NCBI GenBank assembly: GCA_051362555.1
Contig: CM120649.1
Coordinates: 4,960,001-5,024,000 of the forward strand
Reading direction: 5' to 3'
From: Lingula anatina
Lineage: Eukaryota > Animalia > Brachiopoda
Length of the DNA: 64,000 nucleotides
The position numbers were made by a program, and so were the translations under genes. Under the pieces are notes generated by a model. It made no database searches. It was not told the DNA's origin and saw nothing but the letters and a program-made list of their open reading frames with translations. Shown here one piece after another: positions 44,882 to 56,309 of this stretch; position 1 is the first letter of the stretch, and every line of letters starts with the position of its first letter.

Positions 44882-47235
44882 TAAAATACTTACAAAATGG
44901 AGATCTACTCCTCCCTGTTCCCTGGAAGTATCTGGTTACTCCCGCGTGGAAGATGGCGTCTCTTGCTGGCAGCTCTGTGTCTCTGATTATTAGATAAATT
45001 ATTACATATCAAGTTTTATACAAATATATATACATAAAATGCTGAATATTGACTCAAGTGTTAAATGTAACAGTGTTAATATAAGCAGATAAGAGTAAAT
45101 TAAAAAAGCATTGTCAAATACATAATCATTTACTATGCTCAAATTTTAAATATAACTAATTCAATTATTAAGAATAATAATTATATCAATTATAACAATA
45201 ATTCTATATTTTATAATATACAAAAAGTCATTAGAGTTCAGATATATTCAAAAAGAAAATGTTTTTGTACTCTAATTATCAGTTATACAATCTACATTAT
45301 TGAAATAAGGTTATAAATCGATAAACAAAATAACAGTTTTCTTACAGTTTAAACTCCCTCTCCCTGCTCTTCCTGACTTCAGAATCATCTTCATACAACA
45401 ATATCTCCGTGTGTGGTCCGTTCCCCTCCACACCAGTGCCAGGGGTGTACTTCTTCAGTGGTTTTATCACCGTTTTCACATTAGTATTCAGCAGGGATTT
45501 CATCTGTTCTTTGATTATAGATGCCATTTCCAGGAGGAGCTGTCTTTGGGGGACTCGCGGGGTTGGTTCTGGTAAGTCTGATTCTGAAAAAGAATTAAAT
45601 AATAAATATGTAATAAATAAATAATGAATTTTTAAAAAAATAAACAAAAAGCACTGTAATAATGAACCTGATAATCTTGCAGTTTATTAAATGCTATGTC
45701 ACTTGCTATTTCATACATTTAACTGTTCTTTTTCTTTTCCTTAGAGAGAGAAGGGGGGGGGGGGGAAAGAGAAGAAAAATGGGAAAATTCACAAATAAAT
45801 TCCTAGTTTAAACTACAACAATCATACTCAATTAAATAAATAGACATAAACATGAACAGCTGTAAATACCTATCTTCTACCTTATCATACATAAACATTG
45901 GTTCACAGGAAGGTTTAGGGGTTGGGGGTTACAGATTTTTTCTTTTTACACAATTTGAAAGTTGTTAAAAGACCTTGCCCTACCTGGAGGTTCTACTCTC
46001 ACAGTGTTAATCTGGGTCTGTCTTGGATTCAGCTTCTCCATGAGCAGTTTAGTCAACCTCTTATAATTATGTCTGGAATACATTGTCTCTTTCACTTCAT
46101 CCATAGGAATTTTCTCAACCTCGGACATGTGAATAAGGAAATGTTGCAAAGTAAACTCCGGTGGCTGCGTGTATCTTTCATCGTTACTGAAGTCCACAAA
46201 TAAATTAGAGTCATATTGTAAGGCTGGGTGCCTTTTTGGTGCCCTAGCTGGCAGAGCGTCAGGCCCTCTAGGCTTATACGGCTTTACCAGCGACCGCCCC
46301 TGAACTATGGAATGTTGGGCCGTCGATGCCTCACGACTGTCAAGGATATATCGCCTATCCTGACTTACAAAATGTGGTGTCTGTGGGTGGGTTCTATACG
46401 AACTAGCTAAAAGTCTTGATGACCTTGACCTAGATTTTGTCTTTGACCTTGACCCACTTTTTCCAGAAGAGGGGTAGTATTCTGAAGGTGCTGGGGAGGC
46501 GAGACTTGGCACTACGCTTGGCACTGGGGACAATCTGGCATATTCTTCCTCTATGTGAAGACTTGATCGTTCTGATCTCGGCGTATCTTCCACTACTTCT
46601 ACTGGTTTTGGCTTTGGTCTAGGTCGCCTAAGAAGCTGCTTGCTTTTCGGCTCTGGTTGGTTTGACATCAGCAAAGGCACATGCTGTAATTGAAATTAAA
46701 AGTTTTTCTATGTAGAGAATCAAAGAAAAAGAGAGTAGCTTGCAAACGGAAGGAAAATATATGTATATTAAACACACATAATCAGGAGCAACATAAATGG
46801 AGGTTACCAGTAAATGGTCTGACATGTATGGCTTAAGCATAATACACGTCAACAGATCGATCGGTACCGATATTTGAGAGCACCAAGGGCAAGGCATAAG
46901 TATACAGCTGAGCACAAGCATAACCCATTTGCAATTTTATTGCATGTCCAGGACCCACTAAGTTAATAAAGTACAGAGTAAAGCTGAGTACGAAGGCTTA
47001 ACAAACCCAAGTGCATATATAAATAAATTTACAACTTGATTTTCTAAGTACAGTGCAGTTTACGCGCTGATAAAACAATATATTACAGCCTTTGGTCGGT
47101 TAAACATATTCGCTTGGGAATGCATCACTTCTGTTTAGGAAAGATTACCATGAAATCTCTGTCAATAGTCAATTAAGCGCATAATTAGCATAAATAACTC
47201 ACCGTCATAGTGTTTGGTCCTACTGTGGCCGCCAT
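41727..47235 (-). CDS. LRRC63: Leucine-rich repeat protein, LRRC63-like
   Basis: Ten exons with consistent phases: 47235-47203, 46683-45984, 45583-45346, 44982-44894, 44605-44520, 44143-44060, 43500-43349, 42823-42740, 42360-42213, 42026-41727. Pro/Ser/Arg-rich N-terminus; LRRs (LNLSFNDL, LKLRNNPI, LVISFNLL, LDISYNRL, LMVEGNQL); C-terminal CDCCNGPLYGPGLRLIR...FG..LPFLFVSCSPYC. The symbol is from recalled similarity, not a search. Confidence 0.8.
42370..42520. repeat. About 33-bp minisatellite, roughly 4.5 degenerate units, in an LRRC63-like intron
   Basis: Repeating tgaaacaggttgtgaaatatagacacaa-like unit right next to the exon 9 acceptor. Confidence 0.75.
43235..43310. repeat. (GA)n microsatellite
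   Basis: Direct GA run. Confidence 0.95.
44815..44872. repeat. (CT)n(CA)n compound microsatellite
   Basis: Direct runs. Confidence 0.95.
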
Positions 47236-47451
47236 TTTACAGCCGTTGTCATAACAACAAGACATGCCAAGTACAAGATTACTTCTGCATCAGTTTCAGT
47301 TCGTTAATTCATATGAAATATTGATTTATCGTAAATATTACTCTCAGGCATAACAACATAACAACACTATTATTATAATCAATTAAAGAGTCTTGTAGCT
47401 TATCTTGCATGTGACAGTCATGTGACCAACACCAGCTTGCAACAGACCGCA
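47236..47451. promoter_or_regulatory. Putative bidirectional promoter with an RFX X-box-like palindrome and an M-box/E-box
   Basis: 216 bp between divergent ATGs. GTTGTCATAACAAC at 47245-47258 is X-box-like and GTCATGTGAC at 47417-47426 is an M-box/E-box. The minus-strand start context is AAAATGGCGGC. Confidence 0.55.
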
Positions 47452-48463
47452 ATGTCTCGTCTTCAGCTGTTGAAGAAGTTCGCGCAAGTTGTAACTTTGC
47501 AAGTGCAACAATCGCGAACTTTCCAGGGAAGTGCACAGTGTTTTAGAAAATTCAATGCTCCTCTCTCTGGTAATGATTTAGCTCGGCCAGCGGGCATTGC
47601 GTCGATGATGCGTTTGCCCGTACAGGAAACCTCCGAAGGTACTGTACTGTGTTCGGTCTGAATACGTTTACTAACTAGTATGATTTAAATTGTTTTATGT
47701 AGTTCTTTGTGCAGGTATGCTAATGGTAATTGTGTTCTAGAAACATACGAAGTGCAAATACTAAGATTAATGTGTCTCGCCATAGTTCAGATCGTATAAA
47801 GACTGCGCTACGGCTGTACACTTTGTGGAATGCAAATCAAATGTTGAAAATCAAAACTCCAAGTTTACTAGTATATTATTGAACTAAAATGTGAACTGTC
47901 TGTATTATACTTATGATATTAGGATTTTTAAAATTAAAATCAAAGCAGAATTTCAGCAAGTAATTTTACCTGTTATATAATATACTTTTTAAGTTTTTAA
48001 GTAAAGTATATTTTAATCAAAATATAATCATATTCATTTTACAGTTTATTATTTATCATATTTAGTTAGTCAGCTACCGGTAGTAAGAAACACCTTAGAT
48101 TTAAATAGTAAGGGCAAATTTATTTATTTATGTCCTAAGGTTTGGATGTGTGTTTTGTTGGGGTGCCTCTGGATGCAGGGACATCAAATCGGTCTGGGAC
48201 CAGATTTGGACCACGCCAGATCCGGTCAGAATCCTGTATTATCAGACATGTGAACAATGCCACTGGTATGTGAAATTAACATAGTCTTCACTGTAATAAA
48301 CCTTTTTGGAGTGATTACTGTTCATAATAAGGATTTGAAATTTCATTTGGTCAGTTTTCTCATTAAGTAATTAAAAGAAAAAATGTGATCATATTTAGTT
48401 AAAATTGATGCTTTTTACAGTACTGATAACTCAGTTGAGACAAACAGTAGGCTTTTTGAATTG

Positions 48464-48506
<43 letters not shown>

Positions 48507-51500
48507 CCATCAGGAGCTCAGCCCTTTGATTCAATACAAGTGGCAGATGTTGGAGATGTCTGGATGAATATCTACAACTTACCAGAGGCTTGTAAGAATA
48601 TAAAAGATGGATTCACAAAGTTGATGAGCACTGGCTGTAAGACTTTGGCAGTGGGAGGAGATCACACCATAACATGGCCTATACTGCAAGCTGTCAAGGT
48701 AGGAGAACCCATTTATAGCATTTTTAAATATTTATTTGAAAAATAAAGATTTGTTATACACAGCATTTATATACATGTATAAGATTATCAGTTAAGTTTT
48801 CAAATATTTTGCTAAAACTGTATAAAGTTCATTATCTATAAAGTAATGATTTATCTCTAGAATTTTCAAAAATAAAATTTGGAGAATTAATACATTAGTC
48901 CCGTAAAATACAGCATTTATAAAGTACTAAAAAATTACTAGAAATTTCACTTACAAGATAATCACTTGAATTTCTAAACAGGACTCCATTAGAGAAAAAA
49001 ATTAGGGTCTGTTAATATAATTACCTTCTTTTACTATTTTATTCATTTATTACTTTTATTGTATACAGTGATTTGTAACTATGAAAATATAAAAAAGGGA
49101 TAGATATCATAATCAATTTAGGCAGTTCAAATCTAGTGAGTAATTACTGTATACAGGAAAAGCATGGCCCCGTTGGCTTGATACACGTGGATGCACATGC
49201 AGACACGCAAGAAGCAATGCTAGGTGCTCCTATTGCGCATGGTACTCCTTTCAAACGAGCAGCAGATGACGGATGTCTGGACTGCAAGCGCGTGGTGCAG
49301 ATTGGCCTGCGCGGCACGTGCGGAACGTTACAAGATTACAAGTTTGAAGAGAGCAAGGTGCTGAACTAAGGAATATGATCATTCATTTTTATTTTCAGAG
49401 TGCGTAACAACCCAGTCTCTTGGTCAGTTGTTTTGTAATTATACCCAGTTCATTCTGTGTATCCATCATGTGTACCTAGTATCCAGTCTGTGATATCCAT
49501 GCTATCCATCCATTATCCATCACATACCTATACTTGGTATATATCCAACACATGATATCCATTCTAACTGTGTATCCATTTCATTTTATGTTAATGTCAT
49601 ATGTATCCATGCTACCTATTCTCTCTGTCCATTTTATGCTTTTTACCCTTCATACCAGAGTGTATCTAATTTTACCATGATTGATATACTACCAATTCTT
49701 TGTATCCCATATCATGCTATGCATCCATTATATGTACCTACCTATCTGTAACACCCATTTTATGTATCCATTTCATTTTATCCATCCATCCATCCGTCTG
49801 TGGTGTACTGTTCTGCATATGGAAATGTAGTGTTTGTATTTAGTGATGTGAGTACGTAGTGTTACCTGTAATTAATTTTTTTATGGTGAATAGTTATACC
49901 TGTTGGCACCCTGCTTAAAAGCCCTGCACTTCTCTGCATTTTTGCATTTTTGCATACTTCTACTATCCACCAGACAGACAGAGAAGATACGGGAAAGCCA
50001 AGTGTGTTGAACACAAACTAGTACTGCTGCATGCATACTGCTAACTTACCTGCATGTTACTATATAACTCCATCGCATACTGCCGATTCTACAGCTACTG
50101 CTGACGCCTACTGCCTATGGATAGAGCTACCACATGTTGCTACAGCGTACCATTATAGTTGAATTCTAAAGCTTTAGCTTTACTGCATGTGATATAAGAT
50201 TCAGTGTATGCCAGCAGAGGTACTTCCAAGGGAATAAAAAAAAAATATTTGCAAAATCTAATTATGTACTACATAGTTGTTTTCTGTGTTCACCATCATA
50301 TACATGTATCCAACCTACCCATGTTGCCTGTTCCACACATCTGTATTTTCATGGGCATTGCCATGTTTATTTCCTGTAGGACATGCAATCTCAGGAAGTT
50401 TTTCACAATTTTTGATGAAATATACAGGATACACATTTTTGCAGGAGGAAAAGAAAGAGCTACAACTTCAGCTAGATCCAGTTCTTCTATTTTTTTTTTT
50501 TTTTTTTTTTTTGATAACTTCTTATTGCCATTTTGTCTTGACGGGGTCTGTGTTTTTGGAGTCATAGTATATAGCAGTGTACCGTTTTTATGTCCAGGAG
50601 AAATATGGCCCTGTCGGATTGGTTCACATTGACGCCCACTCTGACACGGGGGAGTCTATGTTAGGGGCGCCTGTTTACCACGGATCTACTTTCCGACGAG
50701 CCGTAGAGGACGGGTGCTTGAAAGGAACCCAAGTTGTCCAAATTGGCCTTCGTGGTACTGGGCATTCATTGAAGAGTTTTGATTGGTCAAAACAACAGGT
50801 GTTTTGTTTGTGACTTTTCTGCTTTTTTTTGTTTGTTTGAATCGCTTTTTATATGCATTCAGGTGTGAATGATCCAGTAGCGGTTGTGGCCTGCTGCATG
50901 CTTGCATGAGTATCTGCTGGTTTGAACTCTCTGACTGAGATCTTATATAATTAATAAAAAGTGCAAACACAATAAAACACTTCCCGGTCACCTCTGGCTA
51001 GTGCAAAATATAAAGCTGTAGGGCACATGTTGTATGTTTATTCAGTCACTTATGTTGTTTGTATTTATGAATTGACAAATGGTCATTATTTCATTTTGTG
51101 TGATTTTATTTAATATTTTATTTTTAGATTACTTTTATGTTTTTGATTTTATGGTACTTCATAGACTAATCATTTGTTTCGCCTCATTTGATTGGTGGAT
51201 TGAGCCTAGGTTAACCAGCCACTTTTTTCCAGTAGAAAAACCTTGAGCCATGACCTATGTGGACAAAACACAAAAAAGAAATCAGAAATGCAGACAAATA
51301 CAAATAAGATAAAGAAAAAACAATTGTGTGTTTTTTACTACTTTACAGTTAACTAAAAATAATTTTGTATGGTCCAGGAAAAGTATGGCCCAGTTGGTTT
51401 GGTTCATATTGACGCTCACGCTGACACCAATGAGGGGCTGCTGGGAGCACCTGTCAACCACGGGGCTCCTTTCAGACACGCGGCGGTGGAGGGGTGCCTG

Positions 51501-54500
51501 GATTATAAGAGAGTTGTACAGATTGGGTTACGAGGGACGGGATATGCAATGGAGGATTATGAATGGGGGAAAAAAGAGGTGGTTTTATAGTCTTCGAATG
51601 AGTCTGCTGATGAGTAGGTCCTAGCTGTTTAGAATCCCTGCTGGCAGCACATTTCAAAAGCTAAAGGCATTTCCCCAAACTGTTATTGTGTGCTGGCTTC
51701 TGCTAGAATTATGAAAAAAATTAAGGAATGCATTTTTTCTTTAATTCAAGTGATGATTTATATTATCATTCATGATTGTATGTTTTTTTTTTCTTTTAGT
51801 GACCCATACGCAGTGTTTTTTCATTGCATGTGTAAGATAAGTTCCTTCCCTTCATTCCACCCATCACTGCATTTGTCAGTCTGTCCTTCTGTATTTGTCT
51901 ATATTCCTTTCAGTCTGTCTGTCATTTTTGGTTCATGTTGGTCCATGTATCTCCAAGCCACCTTCAGTGTGCTTTAGCATATAACACATACTTTATACTT
52001 GACAATGTTCAATAATTTTTTGACATCTTGAACAAAATTCGGGCATGTCATTGCCACTGCATTACCTTGATGTTGTTGCACAGCTAAATAGCTAAGTGGA
52101 ACAGTCTTGGCAATATATCTGTCTTGCCATTAACTGGATGGGCATAATTATAAAACTAGGCATATTATTTTATAAACTTTAGAAAGTTTTGACTAAAACT
52201 TTTAATGTTCGTATGGACCCCATCTCATAATATCCTTTATTTATTTATTAATTAATTTATTTATTTATTTATTAAAATTGATATTTTTTAACCAAATGGA
52301 TGACCTTGTAGTTAGTGTCTGCAGCCTTCAGAGCGGGGTGATATGGGTTCGACCTACCATCTGATATATCGGGGGGGGGGGGGGGGGGGCTAAAATAGTA
52401 TACAAAGTTTCACAGTGCCTTTCAACTAGCAGACCCTCCACAGCGTAAAATTAAATGTAGATTCTAAAAATTTCTCTTTGAATCTTGATTTAGATTTCAA
52501 CCCCTTTGTAATCACACCTCAGAAAGTCAGATTTTTTGTTTTCCAGAACAATGTATGTGAACTTCTATAGAAAAAGCGAAGAGTCCTAACACTGTGACTG
52601 CTTAGTATAACTGTCAAACTTCCAGGGGAAACATGGGCCCGTGGGACTTATACACATTGACGCTCACGATGATACAGAAGAAGGCATGATGGGGGCCCCT
52701 ATTTTCCATGGGTCACCGTTTTATTTAGCCTGCGAGGAGGGTTGTCTCGACACAAAAAGAGTTGTACAGATCGGTTTACGAGGATCAGGGTTTGGGGCCA
52801 AGGATTATTCATATGCAAGGAAAAAGGTGGCAAAATTGCTTGTCCATGGATGATTTAAGTTGACTTTACAATTGGCTAACCGCAATTGCACTTTTTTTAA
52901 CAACACACAAATTAGAATTTTTGGTGTTCTTTCAAAAAAAACTACAACAGAACAGACTTTCATTTCCTAAAATGTAATATTTTAAATATATTTTAATATC
53001 TTTTATATTTTTTTGCCACTGTTGAAAATAGATAGAGTGTGCATTGCTTGCCTCTTTGTTACTGTATCAGTAGCATTCCTAGACCTGTAGCCACGTTTGC
53101 ATACATGCAGCATTTTCAAATGGCGAAGGGAGTACATCTTTCTCTGAAAAAGTGAATCTTTTTATCCCTTAAGCTGAACCACCTTGAGACATGGGATAAA
53201 ACCTGGATTAAATTTTGATTCAGCCCCTGGAACATTTTGACCAAAATGGTGGTGCTTTTCCCCCAAACACCCCGAAAATCCCCATGTCCATGGTCCTGGT
53301 TGCGTGTTCCAAATACAAATGCTTATGAAAAAAATTAGTGAAATGAAAAAATCAAATAGTTTGATCAGAAACACGGTTAGAAATGGTACAGTGAGAAAAA
53401 ATAATAATATAAAAAGGAAAAAATATTAGAAAAATCCAAATGTGTCTTCAAAAAATACACCAAAGACAGTGCAGAATCTCTTTTGTTGTAGTTGTAGTTT
53501 TGTGTGTTGTGCTCGTTTCCCAGTGTTTGACTTCATTACACCCGTCTTCATTACACATTTTTCCAAATCATACTATATGCTTTAGCTTAGGCAGGTACAG
53601 CAATTGCCCTGGGTGTCACTAAAAGAGGGGACCACTAAAAGATTTAGGCTTCGTTCACATGCAATGTCTATTTTCTAAATTCTATTTTCTATTTGCGGCA
53701 TGTCTTATGATCACGGTCTGTGCCCTGAATATCCCGCCGCGTAATTACTGGCAGCGCGAGCCAGTTACTATAAGTTACTATAAGTAACTGGCTCGCGCTG
53801 CCAGTAATTACGTGGCGGGATATTCAGGGCACAGACCATGATCATAAGATAGCGCGAATAGAAAAAAGAATTTAGAAAATAGACATTGCATGTGAACGAA
53901 GCCTTATTGTAACCTTTTATCATCTATTTGTTCTCTTTTGTCTTCTGTTTGTTTCATTGTCAGTGCTATTCTCTGTAGAAAAAACACCGCTTTACAGATT
54001 TCTTCCTTTTGATTGAAATTGGTGTCTTACCTTTACATTGCCTTGGGCTAGTTTCAGAAAAGAACTTAAGACTAAAAAAAAAAAAACAAAAGTATATGTA
54101 TATTAAATTGAAATGTTAAATAAAATAATAACACTGTATTCTAAAAAGAAAGAAATTCTGACTTATGTTTAGACTAATTGGTACTTTTTTAAAATTATTT
54201 TAGTGGACGACTTAATTTTTGACCTTATAGATGACACACAACATTTTTTAGGTATATAAAAGTTATTTTTTTGAAACTGGCCATAAGGTTTTCAATACAT
54301 GTTGTTCCCTTCTTAATTTCATCTGCTGCCTGCTTTTTATTATGCAGAAAATGCTTTTGTTGCCTTTGATAATTATTCATTCTTATAATTAAAGATTGTC
54401 ATAATATTAAAAATGTGTTATTAAATGATTTTATATTTGTTCAAGTGAAAAAAAAAAAAAAAAAACATTAGTTTCTTAGTTGGTAAATCCAGTTGATGAA

Positions 54501-56309
54501 TATTTGATTATAATTATTCATTCAAACTTGAGAAGGAAAAATGCAAACATTTAGCATCCAGTGCATAAAACCTTTCATATTAGTGTAAATGTAAATATTT
54601 TTCCAATAAAAAATGTAGCATTAGAATTTCAAATAATGCTGTCCATTTATAACTTGAGGCATTATTCCCTGTATATATAAAGAATATTTTATGTTCTAGG
54701 GTTTCCGAATAGTCCAGGCACATGAGTGTTGGCACAAGTCACTCGCCCCTCTCATGGAGGAGGTGAGGGAGATGATGGGGGATGGCCCTGTCTACATCAG
54801 TTTTGATATTGATGGCATTGACCCTGCCTTTGCTCCTGGGACAGGTGAGAGAGAGAGAGAGAGAGAGAGAGAAGAACAAAAAGAGAGAGAGAGAGAGAGA
54901 GAAAGGAACAAAAAAAGAGAGAGATAAAGGAGAGAGAGCAAAAAAAAGAGAGAGAAAGAGAGGGGCAGAGAGAGATAAAGAGAGAAATTAAAGTAGTGAG
55001 GCAGAGAGAGAGAGAAATAAATGAGAGAGACTCAGAGAGATCTAGGGGAAAAAGAGGCAAATAGCCTGTCAGTTAGGGAGAGCCATTTTGTGATAAATGA
55101 CATAAGTTTAAATAACCAATGAAGACAGACAGGTAACAAGAGAGAATGCTGCCTGGTTGTACTGTATTCTTTATTCTTTCTTGAATCAACAAATAACTGT
55201 GAAACTAAAAGGAAAATAAATAACAATAATAAATAAATAATAAATATCTCATAAAACAGTCTCATCAAACCAAATTTGTGTGTTACTATACAGTTACATG
55301 TGATATTGCTAACACTATTGTGAGACCAAACACTAGTAGCAACTACAGTACATTCTCTAATTTGAAACATGTACATTGTACACTTTTAATCTAACAATAA
55401 AGTGTGAATAACATTACTTTAAAACAATATCATAAATGTCACATGCTTACTTTTTTGCTCTCTTCTAAGGTCTCCTAAGCTGAGGTCCTGCCTGTCTCAC
55501 TTCTTTCAAATGTCTGCCAAATTCAGCACAGAAAATGCTAGCAGGTCATGTGGACTACTTCTCACTTATGCAGATTATAAGTTGAGAGACTGAGATTGTG
55601 CTAGTTGTGCTTCTAGTACTGCTGGTGCAATCATTGCACCTACACAACACAATATATTATATTATATTATATTATATTATATTATATTATATTATATTAT
55701 ATTATATTATATTTCAGGCACCCCAGAGATAGCAGGTTTGACCCCAATCCAGGCACTGGAAATCATACGTGGTTGCCGGGGTCTAAACGTTGTGGGGGGA
55801 GACTTAGTAGAGGTGAGATCTCGTGGGGGGATATCCAGATGACAGGGATTTAATGTGTAAATACGTCATGAAATGTGCTACCTGTATTAACAAAACACTT
55901 GCTGATCCCAGATGCTGCAGTTACATGTGTGCGTGTGATTGATTGTGTGTGTGTGTGTGTTTAGCGGGGGGGGAGGGGGGGGGGGGTAATGTTTCAATCC
56001 CTTAACTGCTGTGCTGGACATATATTAAGTAGTTACTGCAGACAAGGTAATTGTAATGGGAGGTCACAAGGATTATCAGTGGTTCATTCTGCTTCATTTG
56101 ATGTACGTGGGAGAAGCTTGGAGGGGACTTGTGGTCTGCTGTACCCCATCTCCCCTTGATCAGGCAAGTTAATTGTAACTGAAACTTCCTTCTTTCTTCT
56201 CTAGGTGTCACCACCTTATGATACAACAGGCAATACAGCCTTACTGGCAGCTAATCTGCTGTTTGAGATGCTCTGTGTGTTCCCTGGTGTGAAGTATGCT
56301 GATGTATAG
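47452..56309 (+). CDS. AGMAT: Agmatinase / guanidino-acid hydrolase (ureohydrolase family), 347 aa with any one exon 4, probable mitochondrial presequence
   Basis: Exons 47452-47638, 48140-48265, 48514-48698, [one of four 201-nt exon 4 copies], 54700-54844, 55718-55812, 56205-56309. Motifs [25 protein letters not shown], DAHx[29 protein letters not shown]. The N-terminus is basic, lacks acidic residues and contains RTFQGS. Confidence 0.93.
49157..49357 (+). CDS. AGMAT: AGMAT alternative exon 4a
   Basis: atacag|GAA...AAG|gtgctg, 201 nt, phase 0/0. [67 protein letters not shown]. Confidence 0.9.
50598..50798 (+). CDS. AGMAT: AGMAT alternative exon 4b
   Basis: gtccag|GAG...CAG|gtgttt, 201 nt, phase 0/0. 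[67 protein letters not shown]. Confidence 0.9.
51378..51578 (+). CDS. AGMAT: AGMAT alternative exon 4c
   Basis: gtccag|GAA...GAG|gtggtt, 201 nt, phase 0/0. [67 protein letters not shown]. Confidence 0.9.
52305..52356 (+). mobile_element. Possible decayed tRNA-derived SINE head
   Basis: tagttagtgtctgcagccttcagagcggggtgatatGGGTTCGAcc has A-box/B-box-like spacing but no full cloverleaf. Confidence 0.25.
52626..52826 (+). CDS. AGMAT: AGMAT alternative exon 4d
   Basis: ttccag|GGG...AAG|gtggca, 201 nt, phase 0/0. [67 protein letters not shown]. Confidence 0.9.
53647..53903. mobile_element. Near-perfect palindromic PIF/Harbinger (Tourist-like) MITE
   Basis: tta-GGCTTCGTTCACATGCAATGTCTATTTTCTAAATTC ... 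GAATTTAGAAAATAGACATTGCATGTGAACGAAGCC-tta. The arms pair over about 120 bp; TTA target-site duplication. Confidence 0.9.
54846..55040. repeat. GA-rich low-complexity tract
   Basis: Interrupted (GA)n directly after the AGMAT exon 5 donor. Confidence 0.9.
55652..55712. repeat. (ATATT)n microsatellite
   Basis: About 12 units ending a few nt before the AGMAT exon 6 acceptor. Confidence 0.95.

Follow-up and report, generated by a model that had tools for sequence, protein, structure and literature searches.

Enzymes remodelled by exon swapping and the Lingula locus

The closest described counterpart of the system analysed here is coq-2, in which the internal, homologous and mutually exclusive exons 6a and 6e remodel the core of an enzyme in helminths, annelids and molluscs (PMC7434440; this and the other papers are cited from the portions of text available). 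Splicing also changes the substrate of CYP4F3 between forms A and B (as cited in PMC7434440) and the affinity and stability of ketohexokinase (KHK) between forms A and C (PMC11332825, PMC9741552), in both cases depending on the tissue. Splice events that rewrite the catalytic core of an enzyme are described as rare (PMC7434440): a survey of five species counts 9 events touching catalytic residues (PMC7954323), and the duplicated exons of human genes mostly spare ligand sites (PMC9741552). The window studied here, the whole stretch of 64,000 nt from the brachiopod Lingula anatina (contig CM120649.1, positions 4,960,001 to 5,024,000), contains a guanidinobutyrase-like gene of the AGMAT/GDAH family in which four tandem copies of exon 4 (4a to 4d) stand between single exons 3 and 5. 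We find that this four-exon cassette is real, expressed and under selection.

The coq-2 exons occur in several phyla with an origin described as unresolved, and they form a pair whose function, ubiquinone versus rhodoquinone synthesis, was shown genetically (PMC7434440). The Lingula cassette, in contrast, has four exons, each with metal ligands and the catalytic His; its effect on the substrate is predicted, and the swap turns up again, at the same exon, in a second phylum. Unlike it, CYP4F3 and KHK are two-way switches in other folds, and the region swapped in KHK contains just one residue that contacts a ligand (PMC11332825, PMC9741552). Within the family, human AGMAT/GDAH and the Pseudomonas enzymes GbuA and GpuA (PDB 3NIO and 3NIP) have the same manganese-ligand motifs, catalytic His and Arg (R72 in GbuA, R105 in human). 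They differ from Lingula in how they vary: the preference of the human enzyme is shifted by the R105G allele (PMC9772407), and Pseudomonas has two genes. In the open literature, subscription papers aside, we found no paper on mutually exclusive exons of agmatinase or on exon duplication in ureohydrolases, none on Lingula phosphagen and, by title among the hits listed, none on this gene in Lingula anatina alternative splicing. The string 'agmat' is absent from the available text of two splice-event surveys, PMC7954323 among them.

Four open copies of exon 4 in a single gene

All four copies are 201 nt long, bounded by AG and GT, in phase 0/0, and free of stops and indels. Any of them, placed between exons 1-3 and exons 5-7, gives a frame of 347 aa with six GT-AG introns (Table 1). 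A six-frame motif scan of the window found DAHxD four times, and the motifs of the flanking exons, GGDH in exon 3 and SFDID in exon 5, once each. The encoded segments are identical at 42 of 67 residues in four pairs (4a-4c, 4a-4d, 4b-4c, 4c-4d), at 38 for 4a-4b and at 37 for 4b-4d; 31 of the 67 residues are invariant, and nucleotide identity is 118-136 of 201. Each copy matches PF00491 (Pfam Arginase, E 1e-15 to 3e-14), so the pattern is not due to chance. An initial annotation of this DNA, made from the letters, had proposed these four exons; their positions, size, phase, boundaries and openness, the two identities it gave (4a-4b and 4a-4c), its count of invariant residues, the single flanking exons and the four predicted 347-aa products were all reproduced. 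Homologous tandem exons of equal length and phase between single flanking exons characterise the class of tandem duplicated mutually exclusive exons, of which the Lingula gene is a member.

Table 1. Coding exons of the Lingula AGMAT/GDAH gene in window coordinates.
Feature	Coordinates	Strand	Evidence and remarks
Exon 1, coding part	47452..47638	+	Gene model; exon 1-2 joint with 54 reads in run X1; agrees with RefSeq XP_013401191.1
Exon 2, constitutive; Arg98 (GbuA R72, human R105)	48140..48265	+	Gene model, reads, alignment
Exon 3, constitutive; GGDH metal ligand His155	48514..48698	+	Gene model; donor joins 4a, 4c, 4d and exon 5 in reads
Exon 4a	49157..49357	+	RefSeq isoform X2; dominant in runs X1-X3
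Exon 4b	50598..50798	+	Rare; present in runs X4, X7, X8
Exon 4c	51378..51578	+	RefSeq isoform X1; junction reads on both sides
Exon 4d	52626..52826	+	Most diverged copy; 3-4d joint reads, loose ends into exon 5
Exon 5, constitutive; SFDID metal ligands Asp269/Asp271	54700..54844	+	Gene model, reads
Exon 6, constitutive; GTPE motif	55718..55812	+	Gene model and RefSeq protein agreement; no read coverage
Exon 7, coding part to stop	56205..56309	+	Gene model and RefSeq protein agreement; no read coverage

Two of the four isoforms, 4a and 4c, are already contained in the automatic annotation of RefSeq. Its L. anatina isoforms X1 and X2 differ at 23 positions, every one inside exon 4. Exon 4a is 96% identical to 'agmatinase, mitochondrial isoform X2'; the full models with 4a and 4c differ at 6 of 347 positions from isoform X2 and from 'guanidinobutyrase isoform X1', respectively. 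By such comparisons the Lingula of the window is somewhat diverged from the RefSeq animal. At window positions 49344-49347 the 4a copy encodes Phe-Glu, and RefSeq and all listed reads have Trp-Gly there, a difference due either to a private allele or to an error in the assembly. On another scaffold, RefSeq has a second L. anatina locus (XP_013422128.1), partial and using 4c, which is a haplotype or a paralogue.

Copies are joined one at a time in RNA reads

We mapped raw RNA runs carrying the same species label, seven of nine in all (run X7 twice), using about 6-30% of the reads of each. The first mapping (runs X1, X4, X7, X9) covered exons 1-5, and 15 of its 23 joints, many of them from a repeat, are listed; its counts below are those among the joints listed. 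The second (runs X2, X3, X7, X8) used a stretch that stops before the repeat and exon 5, and its joint table is complete. Joints are listed from 3 reads and 2 starts upwards.

On the acceptor side, reads joining exons 3 and 4a numbered 31, 1, 0 and 0 in runs X1, X4, X7 and X9, and 30, 36, 0 and 0 in runs X2, X3, X7 and X8. The latter four runs gave 2, 4, 2 and 2 reads for 3-4c, and 3-4a and 3-4c are the two joints of the complete table; 3-4d had 9, 0, 1 and 0 reads in the first mapping. On the donor side, the first mapping gave 29, 0, 0 and 0 reads for 4a-5 and 1, 0, 4 and 3 for 4c-5. The second has loose read ends that spell the start of exon 5 behind 4a (21 in run X2, 29 in run X3) and 4d (4 and 6 in the same runs), and such ends also lie behind 4b and 4c in run X7 (3 and 4). 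A joint between two exon-4 copies occurs neither in the complete table of the second mapping (at least 3 reads and 2 starts) nor among the 15 of 23 joints of the first.

Single-copy use is thus observed at both ends of 4a, 4c and 4d; for 4b it is half observed, at the 3' end. Together with the RefSeq isoforms, which differ in exon 4 alone, these reads make it highly probable that the Lingula copies are spliced in one at a time, as the initial annotation had suggested. The two outcomes that it regarded as fatal, copies in series or a single copy ever spliced in, are largely contradicted by these joints. The joints it predicted between exon 3 and 4a, 4c or 4d, and between all four copies and exon 5, were seen; the one between exons 3 and 4b was not among the joints listed in either mapping. 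This gap counts against exclusivity across the full set, as do the size of the support for 4b (the 3 reads of run X7) and the nature of short reads, which reveal junctions and not whole transcripts.

Sets of runs differ in the copies they use. Acceptor joints listed for 4a and for the other copies were 97:15 in runs X1-X3 and 0:5 in runs X7-X9 (Fisher p 9e-5), and donor-side joints 79:11 and 0:10 (p 2e-8), counts in which reads are partly non-independent and joints below the threshold are absent. A regulatory reading is weakened by confounding: the genotype of X7-X9 differs from that of X1-X3, and the sample types are unlabelled. Usage therefore differs between sample sets and is not evidence of tissue regulation.

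The copies are old and constrained

Between copies, the proportion of synonymous differences (pS) is 0.65-0.92, saturated in five of the six pairs, and the rate of replacement substitutions (dN) is 0.26-0.40; by this measure the duplications are old. Differences between reads and the window, taken from the 40 of 90 variant rows listed, were synonymous in 8 cases and replacements in 4 for 4a, with 9 and 0 for 4b and 8 and 2 for 4c (binomial p for the synonymous excess 2e-3, 2e-6 and 2e-4). Copies 4a, 4b and 4c, rare ones included, are still under purifying selection, and the neutral drift that would have undone the initial proposal is not what they show. For 4d the case is weaker: no differences occur among those 40 rows, and its constraint is read from the between-copy comparison of synonymous and replacement differences (pS and pN).

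Exon 4 has also evolved faster than the rest of the Lingula protein. Its identity to a panel, minus that of the flanks, is -0.118 for 4d, -0.100 for 4c and 4b, and -0.056 for 4a; the same difference in 33 other animal proteins has a mean of +0.006 (standard deviation 0.035, minimum -0.097).

A predicted guanidino-acid hydrolase with active-site residues in the cassette

By sequence and by fold, the nearest solved structure is that of Pseudomonas guanidinobutyrase GbuA (3NIO), with 451 bits versus 189 for E. coli agmatinase. An AlphaFold model (predicted local distance difference test, pLDDT, 77) confirmed the ureohydrolase fold; its fold match with GbuA has 63% identity. The GGDH, DxHxD and DxD ligands, the catalytic His and the PF00491 fold are all present. 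Along with these, an Arg at the site of GbuA 72 and human 105 (Arg98) and a closer match to GbuA than to SpeB place the protein in the GbuA/GDAH subgroup. Human AGMAT/GDAH hydrolyses taurocyamine and guanidinobutyrate, and almost no agmatine (PMC9772407). 'Agmatinase' is probably a misnomer for the Lingula enzyme too, which we predict to be a guanidino-acid hydrolase: the gene family given by the initial annotation stands, and its name gives way to one that better fits the likeness to GbuA and the data on the human orthologue. Exon 1 carries the ATG and an N-terminal extension that is likely a mitochondrial transit peptide.

Exon 4 encodes Asp178, His180 and Asp182 of the DxHxD motif and His194; in the family the former are manganese ligands and the His is catalytic (PMC8125230). 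Alignment and knowledge of the family indicate that the exon spans three metal ligands, the catalytic His and both entrance loops. Exon positions 17-28 align with loop A of E. coli agmatinase and 53-56 with its loop B; position 18 corresponds to E. coli Y155 and arginase N130, and position 21 to GbuA M161 and GpuA Y157, which are reported to be substrate-recognition residues (as cited in PMC10833137). In the order 4a to 4d, the copies have Q, G, N, E at position 18, A, Y, N, F at 27, T, S, A, S at 30 and G, H, Y, F at 56. Some of these sites are nearly fixed in animals (T30 and R34 in 53 of 53 sequences, Y56 in 49 of 53), and the Lingula copies alter T30 (to S, A, S), R34 (to H, L) and Y56 (to G, H, F). 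A swapped exon that lines the active site with isoform-specific residues, as seen in the alignment to the GbuA, GpuA and E. coli loops, is the mark of substrate-switch isoforms.

The same exon is swapped in lancelet records

Three pairs of RefSeq records from Branchiostoma (XP_035693584/5, XP_066266478/9 and XP_078695358/9) are isoforms X1 and X2 of 349 aa each. The pairs of B. floridae, B. lanceolatum and a floridae x belcheri hybrid have 18, 15 and 17 differences, none outside the same 67-residue exon. Such same-exon isoform pairs in the records of three lancelet species are a new observation. They resemble the Lingula case in the exon swapped and in equal lengths; they differ from it in having two copies, 49/67 identical, and in being known from automatic annotation. 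At the GbuA M161 site one lancelet form has Gln and the other Met. Among 393 fetched proteins, a limited sample from annotation that may miss such exons, the three Branchiostoma pairs and Lingula are those that differ in the exon-4 span alone. Another prediction for B. lanceolatum (CAH1244902.1, 416 aa) contains two exon-4 units one after the other.

In a tree of the 67 columns with 50 rows (18 of 68 having been removed as redundant), the Lingula copies group together (support 86/84) and so do the lancelet copies (91/71), apart from each other. All four Lingula copies have the rare residues E19, A24 and P25 in common, and orthology across the phyla (4d with lancelet form B, and others) is not favoured by free trees. 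Lancelets thus probably duplicated the exon independently of Lingula. Approximately unbiased (AU) tests on 30 rows speak against certainty here, as they leave a shared origin unrejected in six of six cases (p 0.18-0.37).

Other animals offer related observations. Babylonia and Ciona have two whole-gene paralogues each, and the Babylonia pair differs at the same loop positions, a gene-level route to the same diversification. The exon-4 segment of Priapulus resembles 4d, with an acidic residue inside DAHxD, an aromatic one after HGxPF and Ser-x-Phe-Gly in loop B; the tree places it apart from 4d, and the likeness is possibly convergent.

What the swap would change

Since the active-site ligands, the catalytic His and the entrance loops lie in exon 4, we consider it rather probable that the isoforms differ in substrate preference. 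One gene would then yield four 347-aa manganese guanidino-acid hydrolases on a common scaffold. The common Arg98 would hold all of them to substrates with an acidic tail, and swaps at exon positions 15, 18, 21, 27, 30 and 55-56 would retune the preferred chain length or head group, for example towards guanidinobutyrate, guanidinopropionate or taurocyamine. The fuller scenario, in which these hydrolases have different best substrates by tissue or stage and the swap evolved independently in brachiopods and lancelets, is tentative. That 4d might be an agmatinase, its acidic residues at positions 15 and 18 being likened to arginase N130D (PMC8125230), has low odds because Arg98 is common to all isoforms.

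A switch of substrate would matter in several ways. The role of loops A and B in ureohydrolase specificity has been called unsettled (PMC8125230, PMC10833137), and six natural variants on two fixed scaffolds could isolate their effect. The Lingula and lancelet variants could also help to identify what animal AGMAT/GDAH acts on physiologically. If true, the four-way switch would offer a naturally occurring set of specificity variants of an enzyme whose substrate in humans is debated.

Several results weigh against different substrates. At position 21, which corresponds to M161, copies 4a to 4d have M, M, L, M, so that Met is mostly kept, and position 18 varies among single-copy animals too. Arg98 sits in the shared exon 2, outside the cassette; the corresponding Arg caps the neighbouring active site, and it is there that the R105G allele shifts human preference (PMC9772407). 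The clustering of variation in the loops that the initial annotation described is not significant: the mean number of residue states is 2.19 at 21 loop positions and 1.83 at the 46 others (Mann-Whitney p 0.12), and at animal-conserved positions the counts are 6/13 and 9/30 (Fisher p 0.32). Chimeras of loops A and B in E. coli agmatinase had lower activity, with changed Michaelis constant (KM) and turnover (kcat), on the same substrate (PMC8125230). These points favour an alternative with the same splicing, in which all isoforms accept the same range of substrates and what varies between them is affinity, turnover, stability or tissue use, in the style of KHK, whose isoforms differ in affinity and heat stability (PMC11332825); the human enzyme is, besides, already broad (PMC9772407). 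We regard it as the most serious competitor, if an unlikely one: the copies carry four different residues at positions 18, 27 and 56, the family-fixed T30 and R34 are altered, and the acceleration is specific to the exon.

It is quite improbable that one copy works and the others are tolerated spares under relaxed constraint. The dominance of 4a (97 of the 112 acceptor junction reads listed for runs X1-X3), the rarity of 4b and the long branches of 4b and 4d would fit such spares. Yet synonymous sites are nearly saturated with no stop or indel and with all metal ligands kept, read differences in 4b and 4c are nearly all synonymous, and every junction listed in runs X7-X9 belongs to a copy other than 4a.

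Still less probable is an activity dial, in which skip products or isoforms of low activity would dilute or poison the oligomer. Transcripts without any exon-4 copy do occur: in-frame joints of exons 3 and 5 had 8, 15 and 4 reads in runs X1, X2 and X3 (8/48, 15/47 and 4/44 of the exon-3 donor reads listed), with a predicted product of 280 aa that lacks DxHxD, and in this family active sites are shared between adjacent subunits (PMC9772407). On the other side, the catalytic residues are kept in all four copies, and a protein deprived of 67 core residues would probably unfold. The skip reads may moreover stem from a single haplotype or from another locus, because in runs X2 and X3 their consensus has 4 mismatches to the window among 30 exon-5 letters (synonymous by eye), unlike the 4a-5 reads. 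The XP_013422128.1 locus is possibly tied to the two read haplotypes and to these reads.

An assembly artefact, remnants of tandem genes or splicing in series, which the lancelet prediction CAH1244902.1 might suggest, has a negligible chance: it is largely refuted by reads connecting single copies to exons 3 and 5, the copies are too dissimilar in nucleotides, the flanking exons are single, and the RefSeq models for that lancelet species carry one copy or the other.

Candidate basis of the exclusivity

Three routes to exclusive splicing do not apply. Steric blocking is ruled out by introns of 579-1240 nt between the copies, frame surveillance by nonsense-mediated decay by junctions that are all in phase 0, and spliceosome mismatch (U12) by introns that are all GT-AG. 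Docking and selector pairs of the Dscam type did not stand out from controls: upstream, the pairing model was no better than shuffles, and downstream 11 of 16 mock regions reached or surpassed the best value of -17.9 kcal/mol. With these mock regions, a better control, a slight excess over 6 shuffles disappeared. Homology between the introns of the copies was limited to low-complexity matches. The donor consensus is GTRAG. All four exon-4 donors start with GTG and then lack the A and G of that consensus, and the constitutive donors are closer to it. We infer that four weak exons would compete under the control of splicing factors, and that skipping of all four would be a leak.

Other features of the window

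The intron 3' of 4d contains a near-perfect palindrome of 260 nt (53646-53904, 91% self-complementary), from which hundreds of reads continue into other sequence; it is likely a repeat resembling a miniature inverted-repeat transposable element (MITE). A head-to-head neighbour gene was recognised by eye on the minus strand (45330-47237), with its start about 215 nt upstream of the AGMAT ATG; its open reading frame (ORF) of 249 codons (45946-46695) has no Pfam match. Further away, five long ORFs with MFS_1 matches lie 4-7 kb apart on the minus strand (5194-27353) and form a tandem array of major-facilitator transporters.

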